From IMG/VR virus record IMGVR_UViG_3300045988_183727: DNA of 64,000 nt; one strand, written 5' to 3'. Within the stretch, counting starts at the first letter, position 1. Each line of letters begins with the position of its first letter. Source of the DNA: a virus. Position numbers and translations under genes: made by a program. Of this stretch, positions 20,054 to 61,782 are shown piece after piece. Below the pieces are notes generated by a model. It was not told the origin of the DNA. It saw only the letters and a program-made list of their open reading frames with translations, and did no database searches.

Positions 20054-20098
20054 TCGGTATGACGATTATATCCGAAGGAAGCTCATTATCCAAGGAAA

Positions 20099-20117: not shown

Positions 20118-20125
20118 TTAAAGAC

Positions 20126-20250: not shown

Positions 20251-20280
20251 AGCTTGAGTATCAAAATCGGTGGAAGGGCG

Positions 20281-47647: not shown

Positions 47648-47770
47648 ATATGTTCTCACCTCCGTGTGGTGGGAAAATGTTAGGGTGTCGGGGTGCTTTT
47701 CGTGAACTACTCGGCAATAAATCACCGAGGATTCTTGCTTACTTCTTATAAAGAGGGCTTACACACCCTT

Positions 47771-47800
47771 ATTATAAACACGAACATAAAATTTTGTCAA
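47771..47800 (-). promoter_or_regulatory. Promoter of the recG operon (conserved family)
   Basis: The minus strand reads cTTGACAAAATTTTATGTTCGTGTTTATAAT. Confidence 0.7.
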
Positions 47801-47960
47801 GTGTGTTAGAGAGAAAATTTACTGGATGTCAACCTTTTTTCTTTTGCATATTCGTTATTATTGCCAACTATTTTTCCGTAAAATACAGCTTGCTTTAGTT
47901 TGCGCGGCACGCTTTGCGGCGTATAAACTCGCGGTATAGCTTTTTTTTCTGATAATTAGA

Positions 47961-47989
47961 CTTGACATTTTTATATGTTCGTGTTAGTA
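47961..47989 (+). promoter_or_regulatory. Promoter of the conserved family driving the leader and tRNA cluster
   Basis: cTTGACATTTTTATATGTTCGTGTTAGTAT. Divergent from the recG promoter. Confidence 0.7.
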
Positions 47990-48300
47990 TAACAGCGTGG
48001 ACAGGGCAAGAAAGGCTCGTTCGAAGGGCTCGTGCCTAAAATGACAATATTCTTGCGATTGTAAGAATAAGCGCCTAAATTGCCCGTCCCGTTTTCTTCT
48101 TTCTTTAATTACACTCATAAGCACAATAAAGTCAGCTCCCTGAGGGAAGTGTGCGGGAGTTGCTTCGACTTTCGCGTTGTTCTCCATGCGGGGAGGTTCT
48201 GGCGGTTCGAGTCCGCACGACGCGCCTTCTGTTTTCGCTGCTTCTATCTTCACCTCCGTCTTTTTAACGAGCAGCGGACACAGAAACATCTCTCAATATG

Positions 48301-48379
48301 ATAGCGTAGCATAACTGGTAATGCCGTACCTCTCTCACAGGTAACGATATGTTGGTTCAACTCCAGCCGCTATTGCCAG
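48301..48379 (+). tRNA. Atypical tRNA-like gene, probable anticodon CTC (Glu), CCA encoded
   Basis: Acceptor GATAGCG/CGCTATT, D-arm GCAT-AACTGGTA-ATGC, anticodon stem TACCT/AGGTA with loop CTCTCAC, T-arm GTTGG-TTCAACT-CCAGC. There is one extra nt between the D and anticodon stems and a 7-nt variable loop. Confidence 0.5.
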
Positions 48380-48484
48380 CCGGCGTTCTACCCACCCCGC
48401 CGACATCAACTCTCTTCGGCGCTGGCGGCCTCCGTGCAGACGGGATTACACGTGATAAGCGGAGGCTGCCAGCACCACCAAAAT

Positions 48485-48560
48485 GCTGGTGTAGCTCAGT
48501 AGGCAGAGCGGCGCACTCGTAACGCGCAGGTCGTGGGTTCGACCCCCACCGTCAGCTCCA
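48485..48560 (+). tRNA. tRNA-Thr (anticodon CGT), CCA encoded
   Basis: GCTGGTG...TAGCTCAGTAGG...anticodon loop CTCGTAA...GGTTCGACCCC...CGTCAGC-T-CCA. Confidence 0.85.
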
Positions 48561-48652
48561 TTCCATACTCATTCTCCTTCAAGTGAAGCCCCCGTGTAAC
48601 AGGTCTTTTGAAAAGTGCTTTCAGCCTCGTTGTGCGGGGGCTTCACGACTAT

Positions 48653-48728
48653 GCTGATGTAGCTCAGTTGGCAGAGCGGCGGATTTGTAAACCGCAGGTC
48701 GGGGGTTCAAGGCCCTCCATCAGCTCCA
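48653..48728 (+). tRNA. tRNA-Thr (anticodon TGT), CCA encoded
   Basis: GCTGATG TAGCTCAGTTGG...anticodon loop TTTGTAA...GGTTCAAGGCC...CATCAGC-T-CCA. Confidence 0.85.
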
Positions 48729-48763
48729 TTAAAACCATGTGCTTTTGTGGTGTTTTTATATGC

Positions 48764-48840
48764 GCGGATGTCGTCTAATTTGGTGAGACACCAGCCTTCC
48801 AAGCTGGTCATTGCGGGTTCGAGTCCCGTCGTCCGCTCCA
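48764..48840 (+). tRNA. tRNA-Gly (anticodon TCC), CCA encoded
   Basis: GCGGATG...anticodon stem CCAGC/GCTGG with loop CTTCCAA...GGTTCGAGTCC...CGTCCGC-T-CCA. Confidence 0.85.
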
Positions 48841-48867
48841 AGGACACCGTAAAGTGTGTCCTTTTTT
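48841..48867 (+). terminator. Rho-independent terminator after the tRNA cluster
   Basis: aggacac cgtaaagt gtgtcct followed by T6. Confidence 0.8.
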
Positions 48868-49229
48868 CTTTATCTGCTTATTTGTCCTGTGTTTTTCGGA
48901 CAACATCGGTGAGCGCAAAAGTCGCCTGAAGCGTGAGAAGCGAGCTGCCTGCATCTGTTTTGCGGGCGGTGGCGTGATAAGGGTGAAACTCTGCGCTTTC
49001 AGTAGCCGTAAGCAGGTGAGCAAAAGTCTCTGCGAACGCCTGCATGGTTCGCGGGACAAGGGAAGCCGGAAAAATAAGTAAACGCGGGCCGAGCGCAGAG
49101 GTTGTTGGCGTATTCCAGACGTGGGTGCTGCCTTTTATGCTGTGCTTGTTTGCGTGGGGTCCGGTGTTCTCGCAGTCTGGATGGTTGCTGCGAGAGGTGC
49201 CAAAACTTATTGCGAAAGGACGGAGTTCT

Positions 49230-50288
49230 ATGCCAACTACATTTCAAGCGTTTAAGTATCGCATTTACCCGACTGATGAGCAGGTCGAAATCATTGAAAA
49301 GACTTTCAAGTGCTGCCGGTTTGTGTGGAACCATTTCCTTGAGCGAACCTCCAAAATCTATGACCGTCGGCAGGAAAAGATGACGACCTTCGACTGTATG
49401 AAGGTTCTCACGGAGATGCGGGAGCGCTGGCCTTGGCTTGCGGACTGCGGCTGTACGGCAGAGAGATATGCCATCATTGATTTGTTTGAGGCGCGAAAGG
49501 CGTTCTTCCGCCGCATTAAAGCGGGGGAGAAGCCCGGTTATCCCAAATTTAAGGGCGCGTCCCATCCGACACAGAGTTTTACGACCGCTGGTACTATCTA
49601 TGTGACGGACGATTACATTCAGGTTCCGTTTGGAGGACAGTATCAGAAAATCAACAAGCTCAGGCGAGGGACGGGGCGCCCCATCGAAGGGTCTCCCCGC
49701 GAGGTCACTATTTCTCGGTCTGCTACCGGAAAATACTGGGCATCTGTCTGCTGTAAAGTAGAGCGAGACACGCTGCCTATTGTGGACGGCGAGGTGGGAA
49801 TCAGTCTCGGCCTGAAGGAGTTGGCTATTGACAGCAACGGCGTTCACTATGAGAACCCGAAGCATCTGAGCAAGTCTGCAAAGCGGTTGGCACGTGAGCA
49901 GCGGCGTCTATCCCGCAAGAAGAAGGGCTCTGTCAACTACGAGAAGCAGCGGCGCAAGGTAGCCGGCGTCCATGAGCATATTGCCAATCAGCGCAATGAC
50001 TACCGGCATAAAATCAGCCGTGAACTTGTCAACGCAAACCAGCTTATTGCCGTTGAGAAGGTGGCCGTTAAGCCCTTAGTTGAGGGCAATGAGCAGGCTA
50101 AAAGCATCCTCGATGCCGGCTGGTCTGAACTTACCGGTATGATAAAGTATAAGGCGGACTGGGCTGGACGCACTCTGGTGGACGTAGATACCGCCACCGT
50201 AGCACCGGAAGCCAAGCATGATGAGGCACTGGCACAGGTCGTGCTGTCCGAAGGTCAGCGCATGGCTTCCGAGCAGAAGCCTGCCTAA
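49230..50288 (+). CDS. TnpB-like protein, predicted nuclease-dead and C-terminally truncated (TldR-like); could alternatively be a decaying tnpB
   Basis: N-terminal FKYRIYPTDEQ (OrfB/TnpB). RuvC-I reads VGISLGLK where the family consensus has GIDLG (D to S). RuvC-II has IAVEKV. The ORF stops after KADWAGRTLVDVD, before the zinc finger and RuvC-III. ATG at 49230 follows aaaggacgg. Confidence 0.8.
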   Translation: MPTTFQAFKYRIYPTDEQVEIIEKTFKCCRFVWNHFLERTSKIYDRRQEKMTTFDCMKVLTEMRERWPWLADCGCTAERYAIIDLFEARKAFFRRIKAGEKPGYPKFKGASHPTQSFTTAGTIYVTDDYIQVPFGGQYQKINKLRRGTGRPIEGSPREVTISRSATGKYWASVCCKVERDTLPIVDGEVGISLGLKELAIDSNGVHYENPKHLSKSAKRLAREQRRLSRKKKGSVNYEKQRRKVAGVHEHIANQRNDYRHKISRELVNANQLIAVEKVAVKPLVEGNEQAKSILDAGWSELTGMIKYKADWAGRTLVDVDTATVAPEAKHDEALAQVVLSEGQRMASEQKPA

Positions 50289-50303
50289 AGCCGAGCGAGG
50301 AAA

Positions 50304-50322
50304 GTGTGCAATGATTGCACAC
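50304..50322. repeat. Palindrome GTGTGCAATGATTGCACAC (second copy)
   Basis: Identical to 20099-20117. It lies between the tnpB-like stop and scaffold C. Confidence 0.8.
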
Positions 50323-50344
50323 ATTGCCAAGGAAATAAAAACGA

Positions 50345-50473
50345 GTACGGACGGTATAGCCGGAATTAACGCCTGTGGAGATGCATGGTCGTCGTGGAAG
50401 CAGGAATACTCTGTTGGCTGGTAGTCACGTGAGAGGTGGCACCAGCGCTTTGGGGAACTGAATACCTGTGCTG
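50345..50473 (+). ncRNA. Omega-RNA-like scaffold, copy C (cognate position 57 nt downstream of the TnpB-like gene)
   Basis: Same family as A, B, D and E. Central hairpin GCTGG-TAG-TCAC-GTGAGAG-GTGG-CA-CCAGC, ending GGGGAAC plus TGAATACCTGTGCTGG. Confidence 0.75.
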
Positions 50474-50563
50474 GGTATACACCACCCGGAAATAACAGGG
50501 TTGTATACCAATTCATGGCGTCTCCTTTTGGTATACACCACCCGGAAATAACAGGGTTTTACC
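50474..50563 (+). repeat. Hairpin-repeat mini-array C (2 repeats, 20-nt spacer)
   Basis: Repeats at 50474-50509 and 50530-50563. The spacer is AATTCATGGCGTCTCCTTTT. Confidence 0.7.
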
Positions 50564-50663
50564 ATTCGTAATTATAGTTCTTCCCTCCGCTGTGTGGAGC
50601 GTTTTGTCGAAATGACAAAACATTCCTCTTAAATTCTTAAAAACAAGAAAGGAAATAAAGAAT

Positions 50664-51242
50664 ATGGAACCTTCTATCAACAGAACTCTCACCGTCAGCG
50701 TCGTCAGCTATGGCGTCGTATCTGTCGTCAATGGAGTCATCAACGTTGACAACCAGAACCCCATCGAGTTTCCCGCCGTGCTGGACGAGGCATCCGCTGC
50801 CAAGCTGCTGAAGAGCAGATACGGCGGCAAGCTGTTCCCCGTGGATGCAAATATCGTCGTGTCTTCCATCCGGCATGAGAAGTGGAAGTTCTCTATGGAC
50901 CTGAGCCAGTTCGTCGCTACCGCTGCCCGCAGCCGTGTGGACGGCACCGCATCCGAGGCCGACGATGCCCCCGCAGAGGACATCCCCGCCACTGAACCTG
51001 CTGTTCCCGCGCCTGAGACGACTCCCGCTGCTTCTCCTACTATCCCCATGCCTCTGGTCTCTGAGCCTGAGGAGGATTTTGCGCCTGCTACTCCCGAAGC
51101 GCCTGCTCCCACCGGTGGTTTCGCTCCTGAGACTCCCACTCCTGCACCTGATGCTCCCGCCAAGGAAGTTCCCTATGGTGGTAACTTCAATTTCCCCTCT
51201 GACTTCGGTGGCGACTTCGGTTCCGGCTTTTTCGGCGGTTAA
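50664..51242 (+). CDS. Hypothetical protein with a Pro/Ala/Glu-rich disordered tail (192 aa)
   Basis: ATG follows agaaaggaaataaagaat. The tail ends ...GGNFNFPSDFGGDFGSGFFGG. Confidence 0.65.
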   Translation: MEPSINRTLTVSVVSYGVVSVVNGVINVDNQNPIEFPAVLDEASAAKLLKSRYGGKLFPVDANIVVSSIRHEKWKFSMDLSQFVATAARSRVDGTASEADDAPAEDIPATEPAVPAPETTPAASPTIPMPLVSEPEEDFAPATPEAPAPTGGFAPETPTPAPDAPAKEVPYGGNFNFPSDFGGDFGSGFFGG

Positions 51243-51248
51243 TAACCG

Positions 51249-51416
51249 ATGGATGTCGTGAACGTTGGACGTGGATGCCTTGATTGCATCAATAAGGAAA
51301 CTCCGACGAATAAAGAACCCTGTAAGAGCTGTTCCCGCTGGAATAGGTGGGAACCTGACGAAAAGTGTAAGGAAAAGATGGCGGTCAAAGCCGCACGTGA
51401 AAGGACGAAGAAATGA
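51249..51416 (+). CDS. Small Cys-rich protein (55 aa; below the ORF-track cutoff)
   Basis: My own translation is MDVVNVGRGCLDCINKETPTNKEPCKSCSRWNRWEPDEKCKEKMAVKAARERTKK. Its stop overlaps the next ATG (ATGA). Confidence 0.4.
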   Translation: MDVVNVGRGCLDCINKETPTNKEPCKSCSRWNRWEPDEKCKEKMAVKAARERTKK

Positions 51417-51730
51417 GCAACACCAATACACCTGAAAAGCCCGTCGTCGTATTCATCAGTAATGACCACGATACCGTCATTGGTGTGATGGTCATTAAGA
51501 ACGACGATGAAAACCTGCAGAACAATCTCGAAATCATTGAGAAAAACTGGGTTGCTGCTCGTAACGAGTTGCTCCAGCGGGCTCGTGAGGACGATAGCAT
51601 TGAAGCAGACGAGGACGAGCTTCACATCGCATTCATCGCACACGAGTTGGGGATGTTCGACGAGCCCTATGAGACTATCGACATCTCCGGCGTTTACTCC
51701 GTCTCCAATGGGAATGTGGACCGCATCTAA
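51413..51730 (+). CDS. Hypothetical acidic protein (105 aa)
   Basis: ATG coupled to the upstream small ORF. Confidence 0.6.
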   Translation: MSNTNTPEKPVVVFISNDHDTVIGVMVIKNDDENLQNNLEIIEKNWVAARNELLQRAREDDSIEADEDELHIAFIAHELGMFDEPYETIDISGVYSVSNGNVDRI

Positions 51731-51754
51731 GTTGGTCTTGGCAGCAGACACACA

Positions 51755-51791
51755 GCGGCGCAGGCCCTACTCCGGCGGCTGCGCCGCTTTT
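51755..51791 (+). terminator. Rho-independent terminator
   Basis: gcggcgcag ... ctgcgccgc followed by TTTT. Confidence 0.7.
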
Positions 51792-51811
51792 CGCTAAATA
51801 CCTAAAAGCAA

Positions 51812-51942
51812 GTACGGACGGTATAACCGGAATTAACGCCTGTGGAGATGCATGGTCATCGTGGAAGCAGGAATGCTCTGTTAGCTGGTTTTCATGTGAG
51901 AGATGATGCCAGCAGCTAAGGGAACTGAATATGCCTGTGTTG
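51812..51942 (+). ncRNA. Omega-RNA-like scaffold, copy D
   Basis: Central hairpin GCTGG-TTT-TCAT-GTGAGAG-ATGA-TG-CCAGC (TCAT/ATGA covaries with TCAC/GTGA). Linker TGAATATGCCTGTGTTGG. Confidence 0.7.
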
Positions 51943-52155
51943 GGTGTATGAGGCCCTGAAATGACAGGGGTGTATACCATATAATCTGTCGCTTGAGGAG
52001 ACAGGCGTATAGAGCCCAGAAATAACAGGGTTGTATACCCCTTAACCGCGCTCCAACTTTCAATCCTAAGGTGTATAAGGGCCTGAAATAACGGGGTGAT
52101 ACCTCAGTTATTCCTTTTAGGTACATAACGGGCTAAAACAACAGGGTAGTGTACC
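51943..52155 (+). repeat. Hairpin-repeat mini-array D (4 repeats)
   Basis: Repeats at 51943-51978, 52005-52039, 52071-52103 and 52121-52155. Spacers are 26, 31 and 17 nt. The 3' arm CAGGGTTGTATACC is conserved while the 5' arm varies but keeps pairing. Confidence 0.7.
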
Positions 52156-52221
52156 AGATTATATATGATATGGGTGTAGGTATTCGTTTAGGACAACTTG
52201 AAGTTGAAAGGAGGTCTCTGG

Positions 52222-52743
52222 ATGGCCTCAAAAAAGATATATAGTTCCCCTGAACTCTATGAGGACAAGTTGGTGCGCGTAATGGCGCGGCTTGGTATCG
52301 AAGAAGGCGACTACAACTACGACTGGAGTCGTCAGGAGTGTTGGGTTGAGTTCAGGTACAAGGGTGAGCTTTACCGCTTCTCCCATAGCGTGAAGAACGC
52401 CCAAGAGCACGGCATCTCCCTGCAGTACGGCTCCGATGCCTTCGCACAGGTCGTGCTTTCTTTGGAAGACCTCGCCCGTATGGTCGAACGTGGCATCTAC
52501 GACCTGTCCACATGGGTGGCCGGAATGAGAGCTCTGCCGGAGCGCTCAAAGTCCTTGGATGCCTGTTTCATTGCTCTCGGCTTTGTAGAGCCGCCCACAT
52601 CCAAAGAAGAAATCACACTCCACTACCGCCGGTTGGCGAAGGTGTATCACCCTGATGCCGGTGGCGATAGCTCCTCATTTGATGCGCTGTCTAACAACTA
52701 TGCGAAATGTATGGAGATTTTCGAGGAGGTTGCCAACAAATAA
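52222..52743 (+). CDS. J-domain (DnaJ-like) protein
   Basis: ATG at 52222 follows aaaggagg. The C-terminal LHYRRLAKVYHPDAGGD carries the HPD motif. Confidence 0.75.
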   Translation: MASKKIYSSPELYEDKLVRVMARLGIEEGDYNYDWSRQECWVEFRYKGELYRFSHSVKNAQEHGISLQYGSDAFAQVVLSLEDLARMVERGIYDLSTWVAGMRALPERSKSLDACFIALGFVEPPTSKEEITLHYRRLAKVYHPDAGGDSSSFDALSNNYAKCMEIFEEVANK

Positions 52744-53252
52744 TGTATATGTCTCAGAAAGAGTTCAACGCTATGATGAAGAAAAACCCCCGCCTCCGTG
52801 TTCACGGTGCAAATAACAATACCCGCGAACATCGCTCCAAAGCGAATAAGGCGGCAAAATATAGAAATGTAAAGGTCTACGAGTATGCCGATGGGCTGGC
52901 TTTTTTCGGTAAGCCCCGCAATAATGGTGAAATCCCTATCGCTGTCTTTGACAGCAAGAAGGAGTACCACCGCTGGAAAGAGCTTCAGATTTTGGAGCGC
53001 GGCGGACATATCCACGACCTTCGCCGGCAGGTGCCTTTGACCATCATTACCGAGTTCGAGTATCGTGGTCAGAAGGTCTCCGGTATTACTTACAAAGCCG
53101 ACGCCGTCTATGTGCGCGACGGCAAGTGTGTGGTAGAGGACGTGAAGCCCTTCGATACCACAACGCAGAAGTATCGAACTACAAAGGATTTCAACCTCAA
53201 GTGGAAGCTGCTCAAGGCTGAATATCCTACTTGGTCTTTTGAAATCTATTAA
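52743..53252 (+). CDS. DUF1064-family protein (phage-type, nuclease-fold)
   Basis: KYRNVKVYEYADGLAFFGKPRN..., FDSKKEYHRWKELQILERGGHI..., ITYKADAVYVRDGKCVVEDVKP... follows the DUF1064 pattern. The start overlaps the upstream stop (TAATG). Confidence 0.65.
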   Translation: MYMSQKEFNAMMKKNPRLRVHGANNNTREHRSKANKAAKYRNVKVYEYADGLAFFGKPRNNGEIPIAVFDSKKEYHRWKELQILERGGHIHDLRRQVPLTIITEFEYRGQKVSGITYKADAVYVRDGKCVVEDVKPFDTTTQKYRTTKDFNLKWKLLKAEYPTWSFEIY

Positions 53253-53258
53253 AAACGA

Positions 53259-53390
53259 GTACGGATGGTATAACCGGAATTAACGCCTGTGGAGATGCAT
53301 GGTCGTCGTGGAAGCAGGAATACTCTGTTGGCTGGTAATCATGTGAGAGATGATACCGGCACCTTTGGGGAACTGAATATGCCTGTGTCG
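53259..53390 (+). ncRNA. Omega-RNA-like scaffold, copy E
   Basis: Central hairpin GCTGG-TAA-TCAT-GTGAGAG-ATGA-TA-CCGGC, whose U-G pair is only allowed on the + strand RNA. Linker TGAATATGCCTGTGTCGG. Confidence 0.7.
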
Positions 53391-53533
53391 GGTATATAGA
53401 ACCCTGAAACGACAGGGTTGTGTATCACAGAATAACTGCGGCAGCGGCATATATGGCTCTGAAACAACAGGGTTGTATACCGCATAAAAAAGGCTATGGT
53501 GTGTAATACCCTGAAATAACAAGGTTGTGTACC
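53391..53533 (+). repeat. Hairpin-repeat mini-array E (3 repeats)
   Basis: Repeats at 53391-53426, 53447-53481 and 53499-53533. Spacers are 20 and 17 nt. Confidence 0.7.
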
Positions 53534-53718
53534 CCATAACATATTGTTTCTGAAAGTGGTGGACGGCAAGTGGAAAATCTGAGCAACATCCGGTGGCGAG
53601 TTCATCTGTAAGACCTGCTACGGTGGAGGGAGCGGTATTTTCCTTGCCTACTTCGACCTCGTGCAGTGAGTGATTGCAGGGCTTTCGACGGTTCCGCAAA
53701 TTTGTTCGTTCCAAGAAC

Positions 53719-53796
53719 TTGACAAAATATCGAATTATAGTAGTATAGAATTATAAGGAAGGACAGTCTAACACAGACTGTCCTTCCGCTTTTTTA
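53719..53796 (+). promoter_or_regulatory. Promoter immediately followed by an intrinsic terminator (cassette 5, + strand, short leader)
   Basis: TTGACA (53719-24), 16 nt, TAGTAT (53741-46), then GGAAGGACAGTCT-AACAC-AGACTGTCCTTCC GCTTTTTT (53757-53796), 25 nt before the TTG start at 53821. Confidence 0.7.
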
Positions 53797-53820
53797 TGCT
53801 CAGAAAGGGGATGACAATTT

Positions 53821-54615
53821 TTGGGAAACACAAGCAAAAAGCACGTAAAATGGGGGATTTTCAAGACTGCACTTTTTACGTTCCTGTTCGTCGCAGTATC
53901 CGTTTTCTACTTTCTCTCCACCAACGTGACACTCGCACAGGCCGAAGAACGCTCGAACCACGAATCACCTCCTGCAGCAGAGGTTGCCGCCCAGATGGAC
54001 GACACCAAGCTGTCAGAAGAAGCGCAGCAAGATGTTTTGGTGCTGAAGGAAGGAATCCTCGACCCGCTTTCCGACATCACGGAAGCAGAGAACTCTGAAG
54101 ATGACCCCGACGCCGTGGAGGAAGTACAGGAAGTCGTTCCGACAGTCTGTTCCTACTGCGGCTCTGAGAACCATAGTTCCTCAATCTGTGCAAAGAGGTC
54201 TATCGCCAATGGTGCCTATGGGCGCTGGGTGATTCCGTCTGTTGGCTGTAATGTAGCGGCCTACTCGTGTAACTGGGATGCAGACCAATCCTATGTTCAG
54301 GAAATTACTGACAGTTCCGACAGTGCAGCTTTCTTGACTTGCGGCGGCGTTGGTGTTCTTGCGGACCACAATAACCAAGGTTTCTGTGGACTTTCCAATA
54401 TTTCTGTTGGCGCAAAAGCCTACATGGATTTTGGTGATGGTGCAACTTACTACGAGTGCTATCAGGTTGAATATGGACACAATACCGGCGAAAAGATGCT
54501 CGATGGAAATGGAAACATAATGAGCTACAGCAACTATTCTTCCGGCACCGTGATTTGCTACACCTGCCTTGACCACTGGACCAACATTTACATCACTTAC
54601 TGGACGCCGGTATAA
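53821..54615 (+). CDS. Sortase-like membrane-anchored protein, paralogue 1
   Basis: N-terminal TM, acidic linker, CSYCGSENHSSSIC. Sortase-type strands are WVIPSVGCNVAAY, LADHNNQGF and VICYTC. No obvious catalytic Arg. TTG start follows aaagggga. Confidence 0.55.
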   Translation: MGNTSKKHVKWGIFKTALFTFLFVAVSVFYFLSTNVTLAQAEERSNHESPPAAEVAAQMDDTKLSEEAQQDVLVLKEGILDPLSDITEAENSEDDPDAVEEVQEVVPTVCSYCGSENHSSSICAKRSIANGAYGRWVIPSVGCNVAAYSCNWDADQSYVQEITDSSDSAAFLTCGGVGVLADHNNQGFCGLSNISVGAKAYMDFGDGATYYECYQVEYGHNTGEKMLDGNGNIMSYSNYSSGTVICYTCLDHWTNIYITYWTPV

Positions 54616-54654
54616 GCGCCAGACACCCACTCTACTCTAAGAAAGGACAAAACC

Positions 54655-55455
54655 GTGAAAACGAAATTCAAAATCCCTCGGTGGGCACTCTTCACCGTTA
54701 TCATTCTGTCCTTTATCGGTGGTCTCTTTGCCATCTCCATGCTGCCTGCTTTCGCATCACGTGAAAGCTCTCCGCCTTTGGCAGTAGCAGAAGCCGCGCA
54801 GAACGAGGAAAAGGACGCAAATTCTGATGCTCAGACTCCCGAAGCAAACGAGACATCCGATGAGCATGGAAGCACTGAAACTCCCGTAGAGGACGAGCCT
54901 CAGGCAGACGATGCTGTCGTCGTTGAAGTGACTCCCTCCGAAGAGCCTGTTCAGGAAACTCCAACCACCTGTTCCTACTGCGGCAGCGTAGAACACACCA
55001 AAGACTACTGTGCCGTCCGTGCCGTGGACAATGGCGCCATTGGACGGCTCCGGATTCCCTCTGTCGGTGTTGACGTGGCTGTTTACGACGTCACTTGGTA
55101 CTCTCTGCAGCACACCACCGAAGGCGATAACTACGCGCAGGCCGTTACAGATGCATGGGACAGCGCCGCACAAATCGTCTATCTCGGCCAGACCGTTATT
55201 GGCGACCATAATAATCAGGGCTTCTCCGCCATCAACAACTGTGCCGAGGGCACTTACTCCTACATCGACATAGGCGACTCTGTCCTGACCTATGTTTGTA
55301 CCGGCATCCAGCATGGTCGCAACCCCGGTGGCTATCTTACCGGAGCCGATGGCGATAGCATCTATACCTCTTACTTCAATCCCAATGGTCTGACGCTGTA
55401 TACCTGTCTCGACCACAACTTCAATGTTGCCCTTGTGACATTCCAGCCTGCTTAG
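54655..55455 (+). CDS. Sortase-like membrane-anchored protein, paralogue 2
   Basis: GTG start follows aagaaagga. Contains CSYCGSVEHTKDYC, LRIPSVGVDVAVY, IGDHNNQGF and LTLYTC. Confidence 0.55.
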   Translation: MKTKFKIPRWALFTVIILSFIGGLFAISMLPAFASRESSPPLAVAEAAQNEEKDANSDAQTPEANETSDEHGSTETPVEDEPQADDAVVVEVTPSEEPVQETPTTCSYCGSVEHTKDYCAVRAVDNGAIGRLRIPSVGVDVAVYDVTWYSLQHTTEGDNYAQAVTDAWDSAAQIVYLGQTVIGDHNNQGFSAINNCAEGTYSYIDIGDSVLTYVCTGIQHGRNPGGYLTGADGDSIYTSYFNPNGLTLYTCLDHNFNVALVTFQPA

Positions 55456-55457
55456 GC

Positions 55458-55489
55458 TATTTAAGATTTGATGTGGGAAACCCACAAAA
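55458..55489. repeat. Left terminal inverted repeat (contains the GTGGG-AAA-CCCAC hairpin)
   Basis: Perfect 32/32 match to the reverse complement of 57153-57184. Confidence 0.9.
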
Positions 55490-55659
55490 AGTCTTATAGC
55501 CACAGCCACACCGACGTGTGTAAGTCTTCTCTCAGGTAGAGGCGACGGATGCACCTGCGGGTTTTCCCAGCTCGCAGCTCTGCCAAGCATACGCCGAGGT
55601 AAGGGAGACATTACCGCCTCCTCCGGAGGCGAGACACTACTGAAAGGAGATGAGCGCAC
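55490..55659 (+). ncRNA. Candidate IscB omega-RNA (HEARO-like) scaffold
   Basis: Non-coding, GC-rich and hairpin-rich (CACAC-CGAC-GTGTG; CGCCTCC-TCC-GGAGGCG) stretch directly upstream of iscB, which is the canonical omega-RNA position. The exact ends are unknown. Confidence 0.5.
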
Positions 55660-57144
55660 ATGACGATGGTCTATGTGCAAAATAAAGACGGTAAACCTTT
55701 GATGCCGACAACTCGCTATTGTTATGTGCGCCTTCTCCTGAAGGAGAAGAAAGCACGAGTTGTTTGCACTACCCCGTTTACCATCCAGTTGAACTATGAT
55801 ACCCCAGACATCACCCAAGACTTGATTCTTGGCATCGACCCCGGCAGAACGAACATTGGTGTCGCTGTCGTCAAGGAGGACGGCCAATGCGTGTTCTCCG
55901 CACATCTGGAGACGCGCAATAAGGACGTACCTCTTCTGATGCAGAAGCGTGCCGGTTTCCGTAAGCAGCATCGCACGTTGGACCGGCGCCGCAAGCGCCA
56001 GCGTCGTGCGAAGGCTGCTGGGACCACCGTTGCCGGGGGTTCTGTCGAGAGATTGCTCCCCGGCTATGAGAAGCCCATTGTGTGCCACCATATCCGCAAT
56101 AAGGAGGCGCGGTTCAATAACCGTAGCCGCCCTGTGGGATGGTTGACACCTACAGCAAATCACCTGCTGCAAACCCACATCAACCTGATTGCAAAGGTTG
56201 CGAAGTTCTTACCTATCACGAAAGTGGTGGTGGAGCTGAACCGCTTTGCATTCATGGCGATGGATAATCCCAATATCCGTCGGTGGGAGTACCAGCAGGG
56301 GCCGTTGTACGGACTGGGTTCCGTGGAGGATGCGGTGTACGCACAGCAGGATGGACATTGCCTGTTCTGCAAGAAGCCCATTGACCATTACCATCATGTT
56401 GTTCCACGCCACAAGGGTGGAAGTGAGACGCTGGCTAACCGGTGTGGGCTTTGTGCGAAGCATCACGACCTCGTCCATAAGGACAAGGCGTGGGCGGATA
56501 AGCTGGTCACACGCAAGGAAGGTATGAATAAAAAGTACCACGCCTTGAGTGTTCTGAACCAGATTATCCCGCATCTCATGGAGTATCTCGGAGGCGAGAC
56601 TCTCTACGATGTCTATGCCACGGATGGTAAGTCCACCAAGGGCTTCCGCGTTGCCAAGAACGTGCCGAAAGAACATTACACGGATGCCTACTGTATCGCC
56701 TGTTCCATTTTGGATGCGAATACGAAGGTCTCCACACCTGCCGAACCCTTTAAGCTGAAGCAGTTCCGTCGGCACGACCGGCAATCCTGCATCCGCCAAA
56801 TGGTTGACCGGAAGTACCTTCTGGATGGCAAGGTCGTTGCAGCAAACCGGCATAAGGCCATTGAGCAAAAGTCCGATAGCCTGCAGGAGTTCCGTGAGGC
56901 TTACGGCGATGCTGCGGTATCGCAGCTCACCGTGAAACCTCACTCGCCCCAGTACAAGGACATGACTCGTATCATGCCGGGGGCGGTGATGGATTTCGGT
57001 GGCGCTGTCGGGATTCTTCAGGGGTCGGAAGGCTTCCATAACGGCAAGCCGGACTACTATAAATCTACGAAAGGAGAACGGGTTTTAACGAGGAGATGTG
57101 CGCTTCTCGCACAGAACGCAGGCATGGTTTTCATTCCCGCCTGA
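55660..57144 (+). CDS. iscB: IscB RNA-guided nuclease (PLMP, RuvC, bridge helix and HNH)
   Basis: DGKPLMPT (PLMP), [14 protein letters not shown] (RuvC-I), Arg-rich [25 protein letters not shown]...[38 protein letters not shown] (RuvC-III). 494 aa. Confidence 0.9.
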
Positions 57145-57152
57145 AAACAAAG

Positions 57153-57184
57153 TTTTGTGGGTTTCCCACATCAAATCTTAAATA
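57153..57184. repeat. Right terminal inverted repeat (contains the GTGGG-TTT-CCCAC hairpin)
   Basis: Perfect reverse complement of 55458-55489. Confidence 0.9.
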
Positions 57185-57199
57185 TCCGGTGCAGCTTTA

Positions 57200-57973
57200 A
57201 TGAAAACAAAGAAAATTTCCCGCCGCGCCGTTACGCTGGCTGCCTTTTTGCTGGTAAGTGCATCATCTTTACATATGGCTTGTGCAGAGGCTTCGGTGCC
57301 TTTCGATTACTTTACTGATGACCTCTCTGTGTCCACTGACGCCGTTGCGAAGGAAGATAAATACCGGCCTCCTGAGTGGTTCACAAAAGAAAATGTTGTA
57401 AGTGAAGTGGACTCAGACACGCCTCCGGGGGAGACTCCTACCCCTGCGGGCGAACCTTCTGTGGCGACCCCCGTGCCTGAGCCCGCACCGGAAACCGCAG
57501 CAGCCTGCAGCTATTGCGGCAGCGCAGGGCACTCGCAGAATAGGTGTGCCGTTTACGCTGTCGAACAGCGAGGTGCCGTTGGGCGTTGGTCTATCCCTTC
57601 TATTGGAATAGATGTCGCTTGCTTCACCTATGTGCTTGGAAGCGATTCCTTCGAGTACGGACAGGCAATTTGTGACGCTGCCGATAGTGCCGGCTACAGT
57701 GCGTATGGGAGCCAGTATCTCATTGCAGACCACAACTATCAGGGCTTTTCTGCCATAGCCAACTGCGCGGTCGGTGCGGTGGGATATATGGATTACGGAA
57801 ACAGTCGAACAGAATATGTTTGTACTGGGGTGGAGTATGGGCACAATGAAGGCACGGAACTGACTGATAATGACGGAAACGATGTTGCGTACAACAACAG
57901 TGGAGGAATTACCCTTTACACCTGTTACAACGGCTGGCAAAACGTCGTCATAGCGTATTTTACTCCGGTTTAA
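57200..57973 (+). CDS. Sortase-like membrane-anchored protein, paralogue 3
   Basis: CSYCGSAGHSQNRC, WSIPSIGIDVACF, IADHNYQGF, ITLYTC. There is no convincing RBS; the IscB element abuts its 5' end. Confidence 0.5.
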   Translation: MKTKKISRRAVTLAAFLLVSASSLHMACAEASVPFDYFTDDLSVSTDAVAKEDKYRPPEWFTKENVVSEVDSDTPPGETPTPAGEPSVATPVPEPAPETAAACSYCGSAGHSQNRCAVYAVEQRGAVGRWSIPSIGIDVACFTYVLGSDSFEYGQAICDAADSAGYSAYGSQYLIADHNYQGFSAIANCAVGAVGYMDYGNSRTEYVCTGVEYGHNEGTELTDNDGNDVAYNNSGGITLYTCYNGWQNVVIAYFTPV

Positions 57974-58066
57974 CCGCTGGCCGCTGATGCTGAAGGATAT
58001 TTGAGGTTGGTTGTGCGGCGGCGCATCCAATCTTACATATCCCAGTTCTGAAAGGAAATGATAAAA

Positions 58067-58255
58067 ATGGCACGTCCCGTTGAAACCATAGACCCCAAGT
58101 TAGAAACGAGCAGATATATAACTGTTGATGGGGAGTATGAAGAACGAGAATCCTTTGCCGGAATGGTTTACAGCGACTCTTTACTGCAATCATTCTTCAG
58201 GAGGACTTGGAAGCGGCTTGAAGACGCCGCAAATGCCCATCAGGATACTCCCTGA
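58067..58255 (+). CDS. Small hypothetical protein upstream of the recombinase (possible directionality factor, by position only)
   Basis: ATG at 58067, 9 nt after gaaagga. The track start at 58058 is too close to the RBS. Confidence 0.45.
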   Translation: MARPVETIDPKLETSRYITVDGEYEERESFAGMVYSDSLLQSFFRRTWKRLEDAANAHQDTP

Positions 58256-58282
58256 TGGGCATTTTTCCCAAGAACTTACGAC

Positions 58283-58311
58283 TTGTCATTTTTTTATGTG
58301 GGTTGTATAAT
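58283..58311 (+). promoter_or_regulatory. Sigma-A-type promoter of the recombinase gene
   Basis: TTGTCA (58283-88), 17 nt, TGTATAAT (58304-11). Confidence 0.6.
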
Positions 58312-58359
58312 ATAGGTGAACGTCTTTGCAGAGGGCGTAACTTATAGGAAAGGGGACTT

Positions 58360-59937
58360 ATGCCTACAGAAAGAAAGAAGAAAACAACAAAAGAAGAAAA
58401 CGCAAAAAATAACTCAACAAAAAACACAATAAAAAAACCAAGAAACTCAACAAGTAACACGAAAAGCAAGAAAGAAAGCAAGTCTCTTTTGGGGTTAAAG
58501 GACCTGATGGAAGATACGTCTCCAGAAAAAGTCGTCGGCTGTTATGTTCGTGTATCTACCGATGCACAGGCGGAGCAGGGATATTCTATACCTGACCAAA
58601 CAGCCAAATTGCAGGCCTTTTGTACCGTAAAAGGCTGGGAGAACGCGAAATTCTACACGGACCCCGGATTCAGCGGCAGCAACTTAAATCGACCGGCAAT
58701 GCAGGAAATGATATCCGATGCGATGGAAGGGAAGCTGAAGGCGGTTGTCGTCTTCAAGCTGGACCGTCTCTCCAGAAGTCAGAAGGATACTCTTTATTTA
58801 ATTGAGGATGTGTTTCTTCCGAACGAAGTGGATTTTGTAAGCATTTCCGAGGCCCTTGACACTACCACTCCATATGGACGAGCGATGATAGGTATTTTGA
58901 GCGTCTTCGCCCAGTTGGAACGCGAGAATATCTATATGCGAACCCGTATTGGAATGATGGGTCGTGTAAGCGCGGGGTATTGGCGTGGCGGCGGAAACGT
59001 TCCGTTTGGCTATGATTATGACAAGACAAGCAAATCCCTTATCCCAAATGCTGACGCGCCAAAAGTGCCACAGGCTTACGACCTCTACATCAAGGGCTAT
59101 AGTTGCCAGAAAATTGCGGATATGCTCGGACTAAGTAGCGAACAGCTCGTGAGGAATATTCTCACCAAGCGCACATATTGCGGCTACATCAACTACAAAG
59201 GCAAAGACTACAAGGGTTTCCACGAGCCTTTGATTGATGAAGAGCGGTTCATGCTCGTGGCTGCAGAAATGGAACGCCGTGGGAAGGAAAACCTCGCAGT
59301 CTGCGGCAACAATAAATATTATCTTCTTACCGGGCTTGTTTTCTGCGGAGATTGTGGCGCCAGAATGCGGTACATGAAGTGGGGGAAGTATATCCGTATC
59401 GTCTGCTACTCGCACACGTGTAAAAAGAACATGGTTAAGGACCCCGATTGTCCAAACAAGGGCGTTCGCGCAGATGAACTTGAGAAGGTTGTTATCTCAA
59501 AACTTTTTGACATTGGTACTGACATTTCTCTCGACGATTTTGACGACACCCACGTGCCTGCAAGTGCAGCAGAAATCCTGACGAACCGGATAGATGAGCT
59601 GAAGGAGTCTCTCAGGCGCCTATATGGGCTCTATGCCGACATCGGAGACCCCATGGTGTACGAGCGCATTGAGGATGTGCGAGGACAGCTCCACGTATTG
59701 CAGAGACAGCTTGCAAGCGAGGAAACGCAGAAACTCAAGGAAGAGCACATCAACTACGTCCGTGAGAAAATTCAGACTATTGGAGACCTCTGGCCCCATC
59801 TTACTCCTATGGAGCGCCAAACTCTTGTTCGTGATTGTGTTGAGAAGGTTATTTTGCATCACAACGGACGTGTTGAGGTTTACTACACTTTCCATACTGA
59901 GAAAGATAGTAAAATTCTCAAAAGGAAAGGCGCATAA
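58360..59937 (+). CDS. Large serine recombinase with a Lys-rich N-terminal extension
   Basis: Resolvase catalytic CYVRVSTDAQAEQGYSIPDQ, recombinase domain, zinc ribbon CGDCGARM...CYSHTC, and a coiled-coil C-terminus. An alternative start is at 58507. Confidence 0.9.
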   Translation: MPTERKKKTTKEENAKNNSTKNTIKKPRNSTSNTKSKKESKSLLGLKDLMEDTSPEKVVGCYVRVSTDAQAEQGYSIPDQTAKLQAFCTVKGWENAKFYTDPGFSGSNLNRPAMQEMISDAMEGKLKAVVVFKLDRLSRSQKDTLYLIEDVFLPNEVDFVSISEALDTTTPYGRAMIGILSVFAQLERENIYMRTRIGMMGRVSAGYWRGGGNVPFGYDYDKTSKSLIPNADAPKVPQAYDLYIKGYSCQKIADMLGLSSEQLVRNILTKRTYCGYINYKGKDYKGFHEPLIDEERFMLVAAEMERRGKENLAVCGNNKYYLLTGLVFCGDCGARMRYMKWGKYIRIVCYSHTCKKNMVKDPDCPNKGVRADELEKVVISKLFDIGTDISLDDFDDTHVPASAAEILTNRIDELKESLRRLYGLYADIGDPMVYERIEDVRGQLHVLQRQLASEETQKLKEEHINYVREKIQTIGDLWPHLTPMERQTLVRDCVEKVILHHNGRVEVYYTFHTEKDSKILKRKGA

Positions 59938-59944
59938 AAATTAG

Positions 59945-59976
59945 AAACGCGCCTCTTCTGAGGCGCGTTTGCTTTT
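59945..59976 (+). terminator. Rho-independent terminator
   Basis: aaacgcgcctc ttct gaggcgcgttt gctttt. Confidence 0.8.
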
Positions 59977-60094
59977 CTAAAAACTAAAATCCAATTCCAG
60001 CAAAAGGGTCGTTTTTTCTCCTTTCCAACACTATGCCGATGGTGTTGTGAAGATGAAAAAACTCTGAGGCTGGTATTCCGAGGAGCGTGTTTTC

Positions 60095-61186: not shown

Positions 61187-61218
61187 AAAAAGACCACCGT
61201 AAGGTGGTCTTTTTTTTG
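61185..61218. terminator. Bidirectional terminator
   Basis: A6 agaccacc gtaa ggtggtct T8. Confidence 0.85.
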
Positions 61219-61230
61219 TATTTTGTGGTT

Positions 61231-61782
61231 CTAAATTGACTCGTCCTCCGTCTCATCCAAACGTTTGATGCGTTGAAAGCCATTTGCAGAGACCTTCTTT
61301 CGACTGCCATCTGCTCTATGGAAAAAATCGCCGATAATAATGCCTTCTTCAACGTATCGTTTTGAACTGGGATGGTTTCGAGTTCCGCCCCACACCAAGA
61401 AAGAACAAAGCCATCTTTCAGGAACGGTTCGGTTGTTCTTCACCTGAGACTGTTCCTTCCTGCATTTTTCAACGTCCTCATTGATTCTCTTGTCTGTAAG
61501 AGAAGCAAGATAATCAATATCTAAAGAGTAGAAGTCGGTTCCGTTGAAATACTTGCTCGTATGGTGCCATGACGCATACTGCAGAACCTTTGTCCGCAAG
61601 AAAGAAAGCGGGGCCTGCTTGAGCTTTTCAATGTTGCATTGAAGAGACAGCGTTCCGTTCAAAATCTCGGCCTCGATTGCGTTCAGTATGGCTGCTTTCG
61701 TCCACTTTGAACGCGGTTTTTCGCCGGATTCATAAGCATCCACAGCGTTGTTGCTCATCGAGTAGCCGGAATACCCGGCCAT
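61231..61782 (-). CDS. Hypothetical protein (183 aa)
   Basis: ATG overlaps the upstream stop. Confidence 0.65.
   Translation of the reverse strand: MAGYSGYSMSNNAVDAYESGEKPRSKWTKAAILNAIEAEILNGTLSLQCNIEKLKQAPLSFLRTKVLQYASWHHTSKYFNGTDFYSLDIDYLASLTDKRINEDVEKCRKEQSQVKNNRTVPERWLCSFLVWGGTRNHPSSKRYVEEGIIIGDFFHRADGSRKKVSANGFQRIKRLDETEDESI

Follow-up and report, generated by a model that had tools for sequence, protein, structure and literature searches.

The closest described counterparts of the protein analysed here are the TldRs (fliC-, csrA- and oppF-associated clades), which are TnpB-sized, have a RuvC DED triad decayed at two of three positions and have lost the Zn-finger and RuvC-III; their guide RNA is encoded directly 3′, they lack TnpA and are immobile, and one known clade is also phage-borne. 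These features recur in a dead TnpB encoded within a 64-kb window (the whole stretch of viral DNA that we analysed, 64,000 nucleotides of IMG/VR record IMGVR_UViG_3300045988_183727). Unlike the TldRs, this protein is accompanied by at least five guide-RNA scaffold loci in 64 kb, four of which head arrays with strain-variable 30-nt spacers, and its guides match sites within an operon that belongs to a foreign integrative element.

Nuclease-inactive type V systems (Cas12m/V-M, Cas12c/V-C, V-O, V-P and Cas12b3) and Cas12k offer a second parallel, combining a TnpB-derived effector with a downstream CRISPR array, a predicted mode of interference by binding rather than cutting, and frequent absence of cas1 and cas2 (PMC12669027, PMC10691335). 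Compared with the inactive type V effectors, the dead TnpB is small (352 aa, without an enlarged REC lobe) and has a genuinely truncated RuvC site, unlike Cas12m and Cas12c, in which RuvC is kept for crRNA processing. Here, moreover, each array begins with a repeat fused to a complete omegaRNA scaffold, arrays are scattered across the genome and the carrier is a virus-like element. TranC proteins and omegaRNA arrays (Altae-Tran et al. 2023) likewise involve TnpB-like proteins at the omegaRNA-to-CRISPR transition, where arrays are thought to arise via duplication of the omegaRNA 3′ part (PMC10691335, PMC13565253). LaTranC was detectable as a structural relative of the dead TnpB; TranCs, however, are active nucleases with split tracrRNA and crRNA, while at this locus the nuclease is inactive and the scaffold still runs straight into the first repeat-spacer unit.

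The carrier of the window, a virus-like genome of ~180–190 kb from IMG/VR, is probably a large temperate phage infecting gut Firmicutes. Since no structural phage genes were seen within the 64-kb window, the label ‘phage’ relies on the IMG/VR listing and on phage-common families matched in the window and related loci (YopX, DUF1064/phrog_190, phrog_95 integrase and N6_N4 methylase). The dead tnpB open reading frame spans 49044–50288 on the + strand, with a likely true start at 49230, directly 3′ of a + strand tRNA cluster (Glu, Thr, Thr, Gly; 48300–48840), a synteny kept in all relatives. The protein matches the Pfam families OrfB_IS605 (4.5e-25) and HTH_OrfB_IS605, with only 24 residues of the TNB Zn-ribbon domain. 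An alignment of the window protein with 12 relatives showed that RuvC-I reads GISLG in the dead TnpB and its close kin (P0001–P0003), as against GIDxG in active relatives (P0005–P0062), which amounts to a D-to-S substitution; the RuvC-II Glu (AVEK) is retained in the dead TnpB and these kin, and both CxxC pairs and the DRDxNAA motif of RuvC-III are missing from them. The Zn-finger and RuvC-III are deleted, and alignment to ISDra2 TnpB (PDB) ends at residue ~322. In spite of the lost active site, the AlphaFold2 model (pLDDT 87; TM 0.84 vs ISDra2 TnpB, 8exa) retains the TnpB fold, and the remaining RuvC-II Glu may support residual or RNA-processing activity.

Across 25 related IMG/VR contigs of up to 192 kb, the dead TnpB occupies one single locus at 87–100% identity, with a dN/dS of 0.07–0.08 at a dS of ~1.05, a sign of strong purifying selection. 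Because of this fixed position, the conserved synteny, the low dN/dS and the linkage to scaffold-headed CRISPR-like arrays, comparison of the sequences points to a truly domesticated protein.

Scaffold 1, an omegaRNA-derived element of ~140 nt (50333–50473), starts 45 nt past the tnpB stop codon and is one of five such copies in the window, all on the + strand, as are all repeats; four of the five head 36-nt repeats. Behind scaffold 1, array 1 (50474–50563) consists of a repeat (50474–50509), a 20-nt spacer (50510–50529) and a degenerate repeat (50530–50563). Scaffold 0 (19717–19859), which begins 3 nt past a tRNA-Ser (19630–19717), heads array 0 (19860–20053; repeats at 19860–19895, 19926–19962 and 20018–20053). 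Scaffold 2 (51800–51942) is followed by array 2 (51943–52155; repeats at 51943, 52004, 52070 and 52120, with spacers of 25, 30 and 16 nt), and scaffold 3 (53247–53390) by array 3 (53391–53550; repeats at 53391, 53446 and 53498, then a conserved terminal guide at 53534–53550). With their degenerate repeats and short spacers, arrays 2 and 3 may be decaying. The fifth copy, at 20116–20264, is divergent, scoring 62.8 bits against a covariance model of the scaffold, and has no recognisable hairpin repeat behind it. Scaffold boundaries are sharp, and the scaffolds share a conserved fold with covarying pairs. A first-pass annotation of this DNA had described the TnpB as inactive, which the RuvC-I substitution and the absent Zn-finger and RuvC-III bear out, and its guide-RNA-like loci as multiplied; these loci are confirmed and exceed its count, with five scaffold copies rather than three.

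At the position of array 1, relatives carry one to five repeats with unique spacers between them, mostly of 30 nt, and array content varies even between phages whose dead TnpBs are 99% identical. Spacers at the far end of array 1 are shared across phages and scaffold-proximal ones are unique. Spacer acquisition may be ongoing. We counted 61 distinct spacers, 34 of them exactly 30 nt long; 30 nt is the length peak among relatives, and the range in the window is 16–30 nt.

Adjacency, the omegaRNA ancestry of the scaffold and the lack of any other effector in the DNA examined suggest that the dead TnpB binds the scaffold and array RNAs. One could instead read the arrays as phage ‘mini-arrays’ serving a different, active nuclease, either a host Cas12- or TnpB-type protein that shares the repeat or an effector encoded at another place in the phage genome; the dead TnpB would then be a bystander, compete for the RNAs as a decoy or in an anti-CRISPR-like manner, or regulate something else. 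Cases of phage mini-arrays borrowing Cas proteins from the host have been described (PMC11656645), Pfam scans of the window ORFs found no Cas1, Cas2 or Cas4, the fixed 30-nt spacers imply a Cas1–Cas2-like integrase somewhere, and most scaffold-array loci do not adjoin dead tnpB. Against this, a scaffold lies directly 3′ of dead tnpB in 25/25 relatives, and the covariance model gives weak matches that each sit directly 3′ of a related active tnpB (L041/L043, E 6e-5; L107/L108, 0.05; L006, 0.12; L016, 0.12). No close relative of the dead TnpB lineage occurs among 185,579 GTDB species genomes (best 38%), the same repeat recurs in seven of seven array-bearing metagenome contigs, with the phage-type scaffold junction in all five whose upstream sequence is readable, and the surroundings of the other scaffold clusters yielded no second effector. 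These observations, together with a strand bias among the targets that would be unexpected if the system cuts, make mini-arrays for another nuclease a rather unlikely explanation.

A target was identified for only ~20% of spacer families. Matches to a ~7-kb integrative element were found for at least nine families and for one conserved terminal guide; the element lies in gut bacterial chromosomes adjoining ychF and carries genes for Int, Xis, an FtsK-like protein, an HTH protein, a 107-aa ORF and a Rep-like protein. Matches were 30/30, 31/31, 30/30, 30/30, 31/32, 29/30 and 27/30; the array 0 spacer at 19896–19925 matches at 28/30 positions, the first 26 nt contiguously, and the terminal guide of array 3 (53534–53550) matches the Rep-like gene at 16/17. 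Oriented by the Rep-like gene, ten of ten protospacers lie on the + (coding) strand of the element, and all ten, that of the terminal guide included, have a G at −1, a 1-nt 5′ adjacent motif unlike the known 4–5-nt TAMs of TnpB. Scans of INPHARED and PLSDB and one IMG/VR spacer search yielded no protospacers.

These targets also bear on a reading of the dead TnpB as a transcription factor of the classical TldR type, acting on phage or host genes via the conserved terminal guides, the variable arrays being non-functional recombination products. Its active-site decay and C-terminal truncation do match TldR descriptions (10.1101/2023.11.30.569447), each scaffold-array lies directly upstream of a conserved gene, and the terminal guides are conserved across clades. 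The guides, however, have no match in the window or in the related phage loci examined, outside the arrays, and the one conserved terminal guide with a match recognises the foreign integrative element, not the phage; a 30-nt length mode, perfect matches to one foreign element and a shared adjacent base are not what random recombination debris would be expected to produce, and we consider this explanation distinctly unlikely. From their sequences, we interpret the dead TnpB and its arrays as a silencing system akin to TldR or to dead type V effectors.

The first-pass annotation had also claimed that a TnpA is absent. We searched all six frames with a Y1 HMM and with phmmer, using manually entered seed sequences; in the positive controls, this search detected Y1 TnpA beside TnpB in three loci (L004, L005 and L006; E ~1e-37) and, in another (L008), an ORF for a serine recombinase directly upstream of TnpB. 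It found no Y1 or IS607-type TnpA in the 64-kb window (best E 0.2), none in 25 related 21-kb loci, and none at E ≤ 1 across ~1 Mb of related loci, a set that took in the 4 kb on either side of 31 IscB copies. Pfam scans of the remaining window ORFs of at least 70 aa revealed no transposases. The sole serine recombinase found is a large protein of 525 aa (58360–59937, + strand; Resolvase, Recombinase and Zn_ribbon_recom; phrog_95 integrase), an integrase-type gene of the carrier element; it was rejected as an IS607 TnpA, or as the TnpA of either module, being of phage-integrase type with a position conserved in relatives. This gene, 1.2 kb downstream of IscB, had been overlooked in the earlier annotation.

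OgeuIscB and other ISC elements of the IS200/IS605 group are the closest counterparts of the second module, a complete mobile element of 1733 bp (55455–57187, + strand) whose bounds were set by empty sites in relatives. Its iscB gene (55660–57144, + strand; 494 aa; Pfam RRXRR, 2.4e-49) encodes a protein that aligns end to end with OgeuIscB (7xht/7utn; E 1e-196) and conserves all catalytic motifs (GIDPG, VVELN, the HNH motif DHYHHVVP...N...H, and HYTDAY); by these measures it is a close homologue and, as the first-pass annotation had said, intact. A 205-nt omegaRNA scaffold (55455–55659, + strand) is sharply conserved from the element's first base, shows some compensatory changes against a 61%-identical relative and compares with 206 nt in OgeuIscB (PMC9640706). 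By analogy with the 5′ guide position in OgeuIscB (PMC9640706), the predicted guide would be the 16 nt of left flank, CATTCCAGCCTGCTTA (55439–55454, + strand). Like most ISC elements, this one is multi-copy and lacks tnpA in cis. ISC and IS200/IS605 elements, however, lack inverted ends, use a 4-nt motif for insertion and leave the target unduplicated (PMC4810608, PMC13565253), whereas the ends of the IscB element (55455–55489 and 57153–57187) are complementary in inverted orientation over 31–35 nt, 9-bp duplications occur at seven of ~16 sites (three verified against empty sites), and no conserved 4-nt target motif was found across the ~16 sites.

Both genes might be ordinary IS200/IS605 debris: the TnpB would be a pseudogene in decay, and the IscB element a standard non-autonomous ISC copy mobilised in trans by a Y1 TnpA of the host. 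In favour of this, tnpA is missing from most ISC and TnpB-only elements, for which movement in trans is assumed (PMC4810608); IscB is also multi-copy, and its left end has a subterminal hairpin resembling IS200/IS605 ends. An intact open reading frame under purifying selection at a locus fixed in 25 genomes does not agree with a pseudogene, though, and the duplications, inverted ends and lack of a target motif do not fit the IS200/IS605 mechanism and contradict defining features of such transposition. We therefore regard debris as very unlikely.

Our census comprised 31 IscB copies of 85–96% identity at ~16 sites, one to three per contig, inserted at gene junctions of the phage-like genome. 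Insertion is polymorphic: the window site is empty in most close relatives, including 100%-identical ones (L016 and L038), and occupied in a divergent 88% clade (L029). IscB is thus not domesticated, but a multi-copy selfish element unrelated to the dead TnpB and without its own transposase gene; it is non-autonomous, as is the norm for ISC elements (PMC4810608). Free-standing phage homing endonuclease genes (T4 seg/mob; intronless homing) are similar: a nuclease gene is flanked by conserved phage genes, and a given site is occupied in some relatives and empty in others, divergent clades included (PMC13565253). They differ in that IscB would recognise its target through an RNA guide, which the flanking DNA would supply automatically, and in that the IscB element occupies many different sites.

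The first-pass annotation was right to see neither gene as an ordinary autonomous IS200/IS605 copy and to place both on a larger element. Its joint reading of ‘domesticated or non-autonomous’ modules stands for a domesticated dead TnpB and a non-autonomous IscB, and fails for a domesticated IscB and for a shared explanation; their different histories make them independent modules. It had named many identical IS copies or a nearby tnpA as evidence against itself: IscB is indeed multi-copy, but its copies are not identical, and no TnpA turned up nearby.

We consider it reasonably probable that silencing of the integrative element by the dead TnpB, together with IscB as a separate selfish homing element, jointly explains this segment. 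IscB, with its scaffold and gene, would take as its guide whatever DNA adjoins its left end 5′, so that it could cut the unoccupied allele in co-infecting relatives and be copied in, akin to transposon ‘non-restorative’ homing, occasionally reaching new gene junctions and leaving 9-bp duplications; its distribution suggests such homing. The dead TnpB would be a domesticated protein of the same kind as TldR or dead Cas12, without nuclease activity and binding DNA under RNA guidance. Its scaffold would have been multiplied to at least five window loci and joined to a hairpin repeat, from which small CRISPR-like arrays of 36-nt repeats arose by reiteration. Its guides would pair with the template strand in the integrative element's operon for regulation and replication (HTH, 107-aa ORF and Rep-like genes), and we infer that binding represses that element.

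Type I-F arrays of phage ICP1 carry spacers matching a small integrative element of the host, the Vibrio PLE. The arrays described here likewise match a small integrative element of the host, in line with the general theme of CRISPR in mobile elements (PMC11656645), although ICP1 has a complete, cutting type I-F system with adaptation genes, and here a single dead TnpB-sized protein is found, with no adaptation genes seen in the window. Most likely, the phage would silence the resident integrative element by blocking its transcription or replication without cutting, in what may be a contest between mobile elements comparable to that of ICP1 CRISPR with PLE.

Motif alignments and Pfam searches bore out the two RNA-guided-nuclease homologues reported by the first-pass annotation, a dead TnpB and an intact IscB. 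The ORF of the former lies on the + strand at 49044–50288 and has its most plausible start at Met63 (49230), giving a protein of 352 aa, in which Pfam detects OrfB_IS605 (4.5e-25) and HTH_OrfB_IS605 together with only 24 residues of the TNB Zn-ribbon domain. Alignment with the nearest relatives showed that the RuvC-I Asp is replaced by Ser (GISLG in the window protein and in its homologues P0001–P0003 vs GIDxG in active relatives), that the RuvC-II Glu is retained in these four proteins, and that a deletion of ~28 residues removes from all of them both CxxC pairs and the DRDxNAA RuvC-III motif, including its Asp. The nearest full-length TnpBs, ~50% identical and longer at 370–384 aa, have all catalytic and Zn motifs. 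ISDra2 TnpB in the PDB was matched at E 2e-49, with homology stopping at residue ~322 of the window protein, and an AlphaFold2 model (pLDDT 87.4, pTM 0.77) superposed on ISDra2 TnpB (8exa) with a TM score of 0.84, so that the TnpB fold is predicted to be intact. The ORF is uninterrupted in every relative, and the gene shows a dN/dS of 0.07–0.08 at dS ~1.05 against its divergent relatives (the 88% clade), which points to a domesticated protein rather than a decaying pseudogene.

Two side observations concern TnpB diversity in this family. The dead TnpB P0003 (L001:10001–11047) is a recombinant, resembling the active P0011 type over residues ~40–170 and near-identical to the window copy elsewhere. 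In P0022 and P0026, which form a second, independent clade of short TnpBs (320 aa), the RuvC-I region is altered (RRDD) and the C-terminus truncated; these may be further nuclease-dead derivatives.

In IMG/VR, 25 contigs, the longest of 192 kb, carry dead TnpB at 87–100% identity, always at a single locus with a constant RecG–four-tRNA cluster–tnpB synteny; a close relative was absent from 185,579 GTDB species genomes (best 38%), and megablast of 45000–62000 returned no match among INPHARED phages or PLSDB plasmids. In some relatives, an extra TnpB homologue, 51% identical to dead TnpB over residues 5–320, is inserted between RecG and the tRNA cluster (L016:7665–8600, L024:7666–8601, L020:3–251), which indicates that TnpB elements are also mobile in this phage family. 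Other window genes encode YopX, a DUF1064 (resolvase-like) protein, PemK and topoisomerase III; with no capsid or terminase gene within the 64 kb, the identity of the carrier as a large temperate phage is likely, short of proof. The window also holds surface-protein cargo that is unusual for a virus-like genome, namely an adhesin of 1587 aa (37–4800) that contains TQ-ester and SpaA domains, and the three weakly sortase-like paralogues described below with IscB.

The multiplied guide-RNA-like loci noted earlier for TnpB are present as five scaffold copies in the window. A unit of ~140 nt begins 45 nt past the tnpB stop (50333 region) and is repeated at 51800, 53247 and 19717, with a divergent copy at 20116. 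Its 5′ boundary is sharp even though the upstream sequences (tRNA, terminator hairpin or palindrome) are mutually unrelated, and RNAalifold on 29 copies gave 46 pairs, some with compensatory changes (10 double changes at columns 97/105). A covariance model of the copies gave weak matches, each directly 3′ of a related active tnpB (L041/L043, 6e-5; L107/L108, 0.05; L006, 0.12) or of the extra TnpB of L016 (0.12), and from this placement we conclude that the scaffold descends from an omegaRNA. Rfam, at gathering and E-value thresholds, held no family for this RNA or for the IscB RNA, and a promoter/terminator scan showed no enrichment over shuffles.

Related genomes contain more scaffold clusters among ordinary genes. 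A second effector acting from these places was considered and rejected, as the genes there comprise a DNA methylase, a LexA-like HTH protein and, for the rest, unknown ORFs. As to immediate surroundings, within 19630–19725 a tRNA-Ser is followed after 3 nt by the scaffold at 19717, an arrangement also seen at L091:2404–2460, and the dead tnpB locus likewise follows its four-tRNA cluster; the 5′ end of the guide RNA might be defined by enzymes that process tRNAs. A palindrome, AAAGTGTGCAATGATTGCACAC, lies upstream of the first scaffold (50296–50318) and of the divergent copy (20088–20110), and might act as an operator, belong to a promoter or fold into a 5′ hairpin.

Of the five scaffolds in the window, all but the divergent copy lead directly into a 36-nt hairpin repeat with the consensus GGTATACACCACCCGGAAATAACAGGGTTGTATACC, which is reiterated one to five times, invariably on the + strand, the only strand on which the G-U pairs in its stem are tolerated. 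Array 1, the repeat-spacer stretch nearest to tnpB, starts 186 nt after the tnpB stop; arrays 2 and 3, farther downstream, are more degenerate, with spacers of 16–30 nt. Across the loci examined we counted 61 distinct spacers in 44 families, 34 of the 61 being exactly 30 nt long (the mode). Array 1 differs between phages whose dead TnpBs are 99% identical (L026 vs L001 and L036; L024 vs L018 and L016): far-end spacers are held in common and scaffold-proximal ones are unique, the pattern expected of polarised gain plus loss, and spacer acquisition may still be ongoing. Between arrays 2 and 3, a DUF1064/Holliday-junction-resolvase-like gene (52707–53252) and a weakly matching J-domain gene (52198–52743) overlap by 37 nt.

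A blastn search in 'distant' mode with 44 concatenated spacers found no match in GenBank phages or plasmids, and one spacer scanned for exact matches in IMG/VR retrieved nothing but arrays. Self-targeting was rejected, since no spacer matched outside the arrays in the window or in the related phage loci examined; one spacer resembles the antisense strand of the scaffold (16 nt, 1 mismatch, E 0.7). A metagenome scan with the core of the window spacer at 19896–19925 recovered seven arrays and, in the bacterial contig L111, a single 30/30 protospacer. In L111 a ~7-kb insert between sufBD and ychF carries HTH genes, a 107-aa ORF, a 340-aa ORF, an FtsK/SpoIIIE-like ATPase, a Tn916-type Xis and a tyrosine integrase. 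An SF3-helicase domain (PF00910) is present in some homologues of the 340-aa (Rep-like) ORF.

At least 9 of the 44 spacer families, drawn from different strains and arrays, match this integrative element over 27–31 nt in L111 and nine more copies, the best protospacers being 31/31, 30/30 and 29/30 in L125, 30/30 in L119, 31/32 in L126 and 27/30 in L111. The conserved terminal guide of array 3 (53534–53550) matches the 340-aa gene at 16 of 17 positions. The coding strand of the HTH/107-aa/Rep-like operon carries every one of the ten protospacers, so that the guides would base-pair with template DNA and are unable to pair with mRNA; all ten are likewise preceded by G at −1, whereas the array repeat ends in C. 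The element itself (L111:2000–8800; L119–L127) adjoins ychF every time and is abundant in gut metagenomes (683 members in the cluster of its protein P0121), and many of its contigs are ~7 kb long, compatible with an excised circular form.

We propose from these sequence relationships that dead TnpB performs guide-directed binding and repression of the integrative element. Loaded with scaffold-linked guides, an effector of this size would bind the regulatory/replication operon of the resident element and block its transcription or replication, with no cutting. Blocking is suggested over cutting by the loss of the active site, by a strand bias that has no exception and by the precedents for binding without cleavage set by TldR (10.1101/2023.11.30.569447), Cas12m and Cas12c (PMC12669027).

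The system appears to be a variant of two known kinds. With TldRs it shares TnpB homology and fold, the loss of at least two RuvC DED residues and/or C-terminal truncation, an adjacent omegaRNA-derived guide RNA, and an immobile existence in a new conserved gene neighbourhood with no transposase. With inactivated type V systems it shares a TnpB-derived RuvC-type effector with a downstream CRISPR array, and strain-variable spacers that match a foreign mobile element by a conserved motif; it departs from them in that the effector, at 352 aa, shows no enlargement by REC lobe accretion, and in that Pfam found no Cas1, Cas2 or Cas4 among window ORFs of at least 70 aa, an adaptation module not being obligatory for many V subtypes. 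More interesting than the pairing of effectors first noticed are these arrays of a dead TnpB, which begin with a scaffold, vary in their spacers and are directed at a single integrative element.

That pairing had been remarked on for having no TnpA beside either effector, which held. We ran a Y1 HMM, built from three TnpA sequences, on six-frame translations, alongside a serine-recombinase query. The HMM recovered the TnpA adjoining TnpB in the control loci L004, L005 and L006 at E~1e-37, and the serine-recombinase query matched an ORF just upstream of TnpB in L008. Neither a Y1 nor a serine TnpA was found in the window or the 25 related loci, and ~1 Mb of related loci, in which 4 kb on either side of 31 IscB copies was covered, gave nothing at E<=1. 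Pfam scans of the other window ORFs of at least 70 aa likewise revealed no transposase. The sole serine recombinase found is a 525-aa protein of the large, phage-integrase type (58360–59937; phrog_95, 2e-120), whose position is conserved in relatives. We rejected it as the IscB mobiliser because it is fixed and IscB copies lie up to tens of kb off, at unrelated sequences.

The iscB ORF (55660–57144, + strand) encodes 494 aa with an RRXRR match of 2.4e-49 in Pfam, and aligns with OgeuIscB over its full length (E 1e-196) with every catalytic motif kept. Comparison with relatives delimits the element to 1733 bp (55455–57187). It has the makeup of an ISC element, namely an IscB with PLMP/RRXRR, split RuvC and HNH domains and an upstream omegaRNA, mobile and in multiple copies: IMG/VR holds 31 copies, 85–96% identical and hence not the same throughout, at 1–3 per contig and almost all in the window's phage family. 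The window copy lies at the junction of srtL2 and srtL3, two of three paralogous genes for secreted proteins with weak sortase similarity (53821–54615, 54655–55455, 57200–57973). In most relatives srtL2 and srtL3 are adjacent and the site is empty, reading ...CCTGCTTA AAGGG GGTGCAG...; it is filled in the window and in L029 of the 88% clade, and empty in two relatives with a dead TnpB 100% identical to the window protein, L016 and L038. Presence and absence at the same site are therefore out of step with phylogeny, as in a homing gene. Other copies occupy the 5′ end of orf105 (L020), the last codons of dead tnpB (L032–L035), the orfJ181/orf181b junction (L037) and about a dozen other gene junctions, ~16 sites in total. 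The L037 copy falls exactly at the junction of the DUF1064-like and J-domain genes.

The proposal that both effectors belong to domesticated or non-autonomous modules has consequently to be divided. 'Domesticated' fits dead TnpB alone, given its dN/dS and fixed locus, and 'non-autonomous' fits IscB alone, whose 31 copies, ~16 sites and empty sites in relatives speak against domestication; the lack of a transposase of its own is the norm for ISC elements such as IscB.

How IscB spreads is suggested in part by the 205 nt between the first base of the element and the iscB ATG, which are highly conserved and correspond in length to the omegaRNA scaffold of OgeuIscB, where 206 nt are preceded by a 5′ guide (PMC9640706). 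By this analogy the left flank would serve as the IscB guide and would direct the ribonucleoprotein to cut the allele that lacks the element, so that the element might spread by 'non-restorative' homing between co-infecting genomes (PMC13565253). The OgeuIscB TAM, NWRRNA, showed no consistent fit at the empty sites by eye.

The element ends, GGCTATTTAAG, are complementary in inverted orientation over 31–35 nt, and 9-bp direct duplications abut them at 7 of the ~16 sites, three of these verified against single-copy empty sites in the window; the remaining sites have no duplication, and the window site is minus 5 bp. By definition, IS200/IS605 and ISC elements lack inverted ends and target duplication (PMC4810608, PMC13565253) and use a fixed 4–5-nt motif, whereas the IscB element departs from this definition, and no flank motif is common to its ~16 sites. 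A search of IMG/VR for a transposase-bearing element that has such ends and could act on IscB in trans found none: the end motif occurred only beside IscB copies or as solo 47-nt hairpins in the phage family, apart from one additional match on an unrelated 14-kb contig.

The solo hairpins are ~47-nt left ends without iscB (L097:4500–4560, L102:1050–1110, L099, L100, L077, L050:6901, L060:6132), some directly upstream of guide-RNA scaffolds, and may be excision/deletion footprints or miniature derivatives. At L020:5560–5640, the IscB right end is remodelled and supplies an RBS and ATG, restoring the interrupted orf105 with a new N-terminus (MKNTSNLKSPVVVF...).

Taken as a whole, our tentative reading, which we regard as possible rather than probable, is that dead TnpB and its spacer-gaining, scaffold-headed arrays are a living omegaRNA-to-CRISPR intermediate, serving a large gut phage as a natural CRISPRi directed against a parasitic 7-kb integrative element, possibly a phage satellite, accompanied by an IscB that inserts outside IS200/IS605 chemistry by a route producing 9-bp duplications, such as the filling-in of a staggered cut that it makes itself. 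The IscB copies, with ~16 insertion sites and matched empty sites, form a natural data set able to test RNA-guided homing in phages, and point to a mode of insertion for which the IS200/IS605 model does not account. If our reading is true, no natural system for array-programmed DNA silencing would be known that is smaller than the dead TnpB system (352 aa, a ~140-nt scaffold, 36-nt repeats and a minimal 5′-G), from which compact CRISPRi tools stand to gain. It would also provide a natural example of a CRISPR array growing from the 3′ hairpin of an omegaRNA with the scaffold still attached, complementing the 'RNA splitting' scenario of TranC and making the omegaRNA-to-array step testable, and would extend TldR biology from single-guide regulation of host genes to conflicts in the human gut in which one mobile element uses many guides against another.
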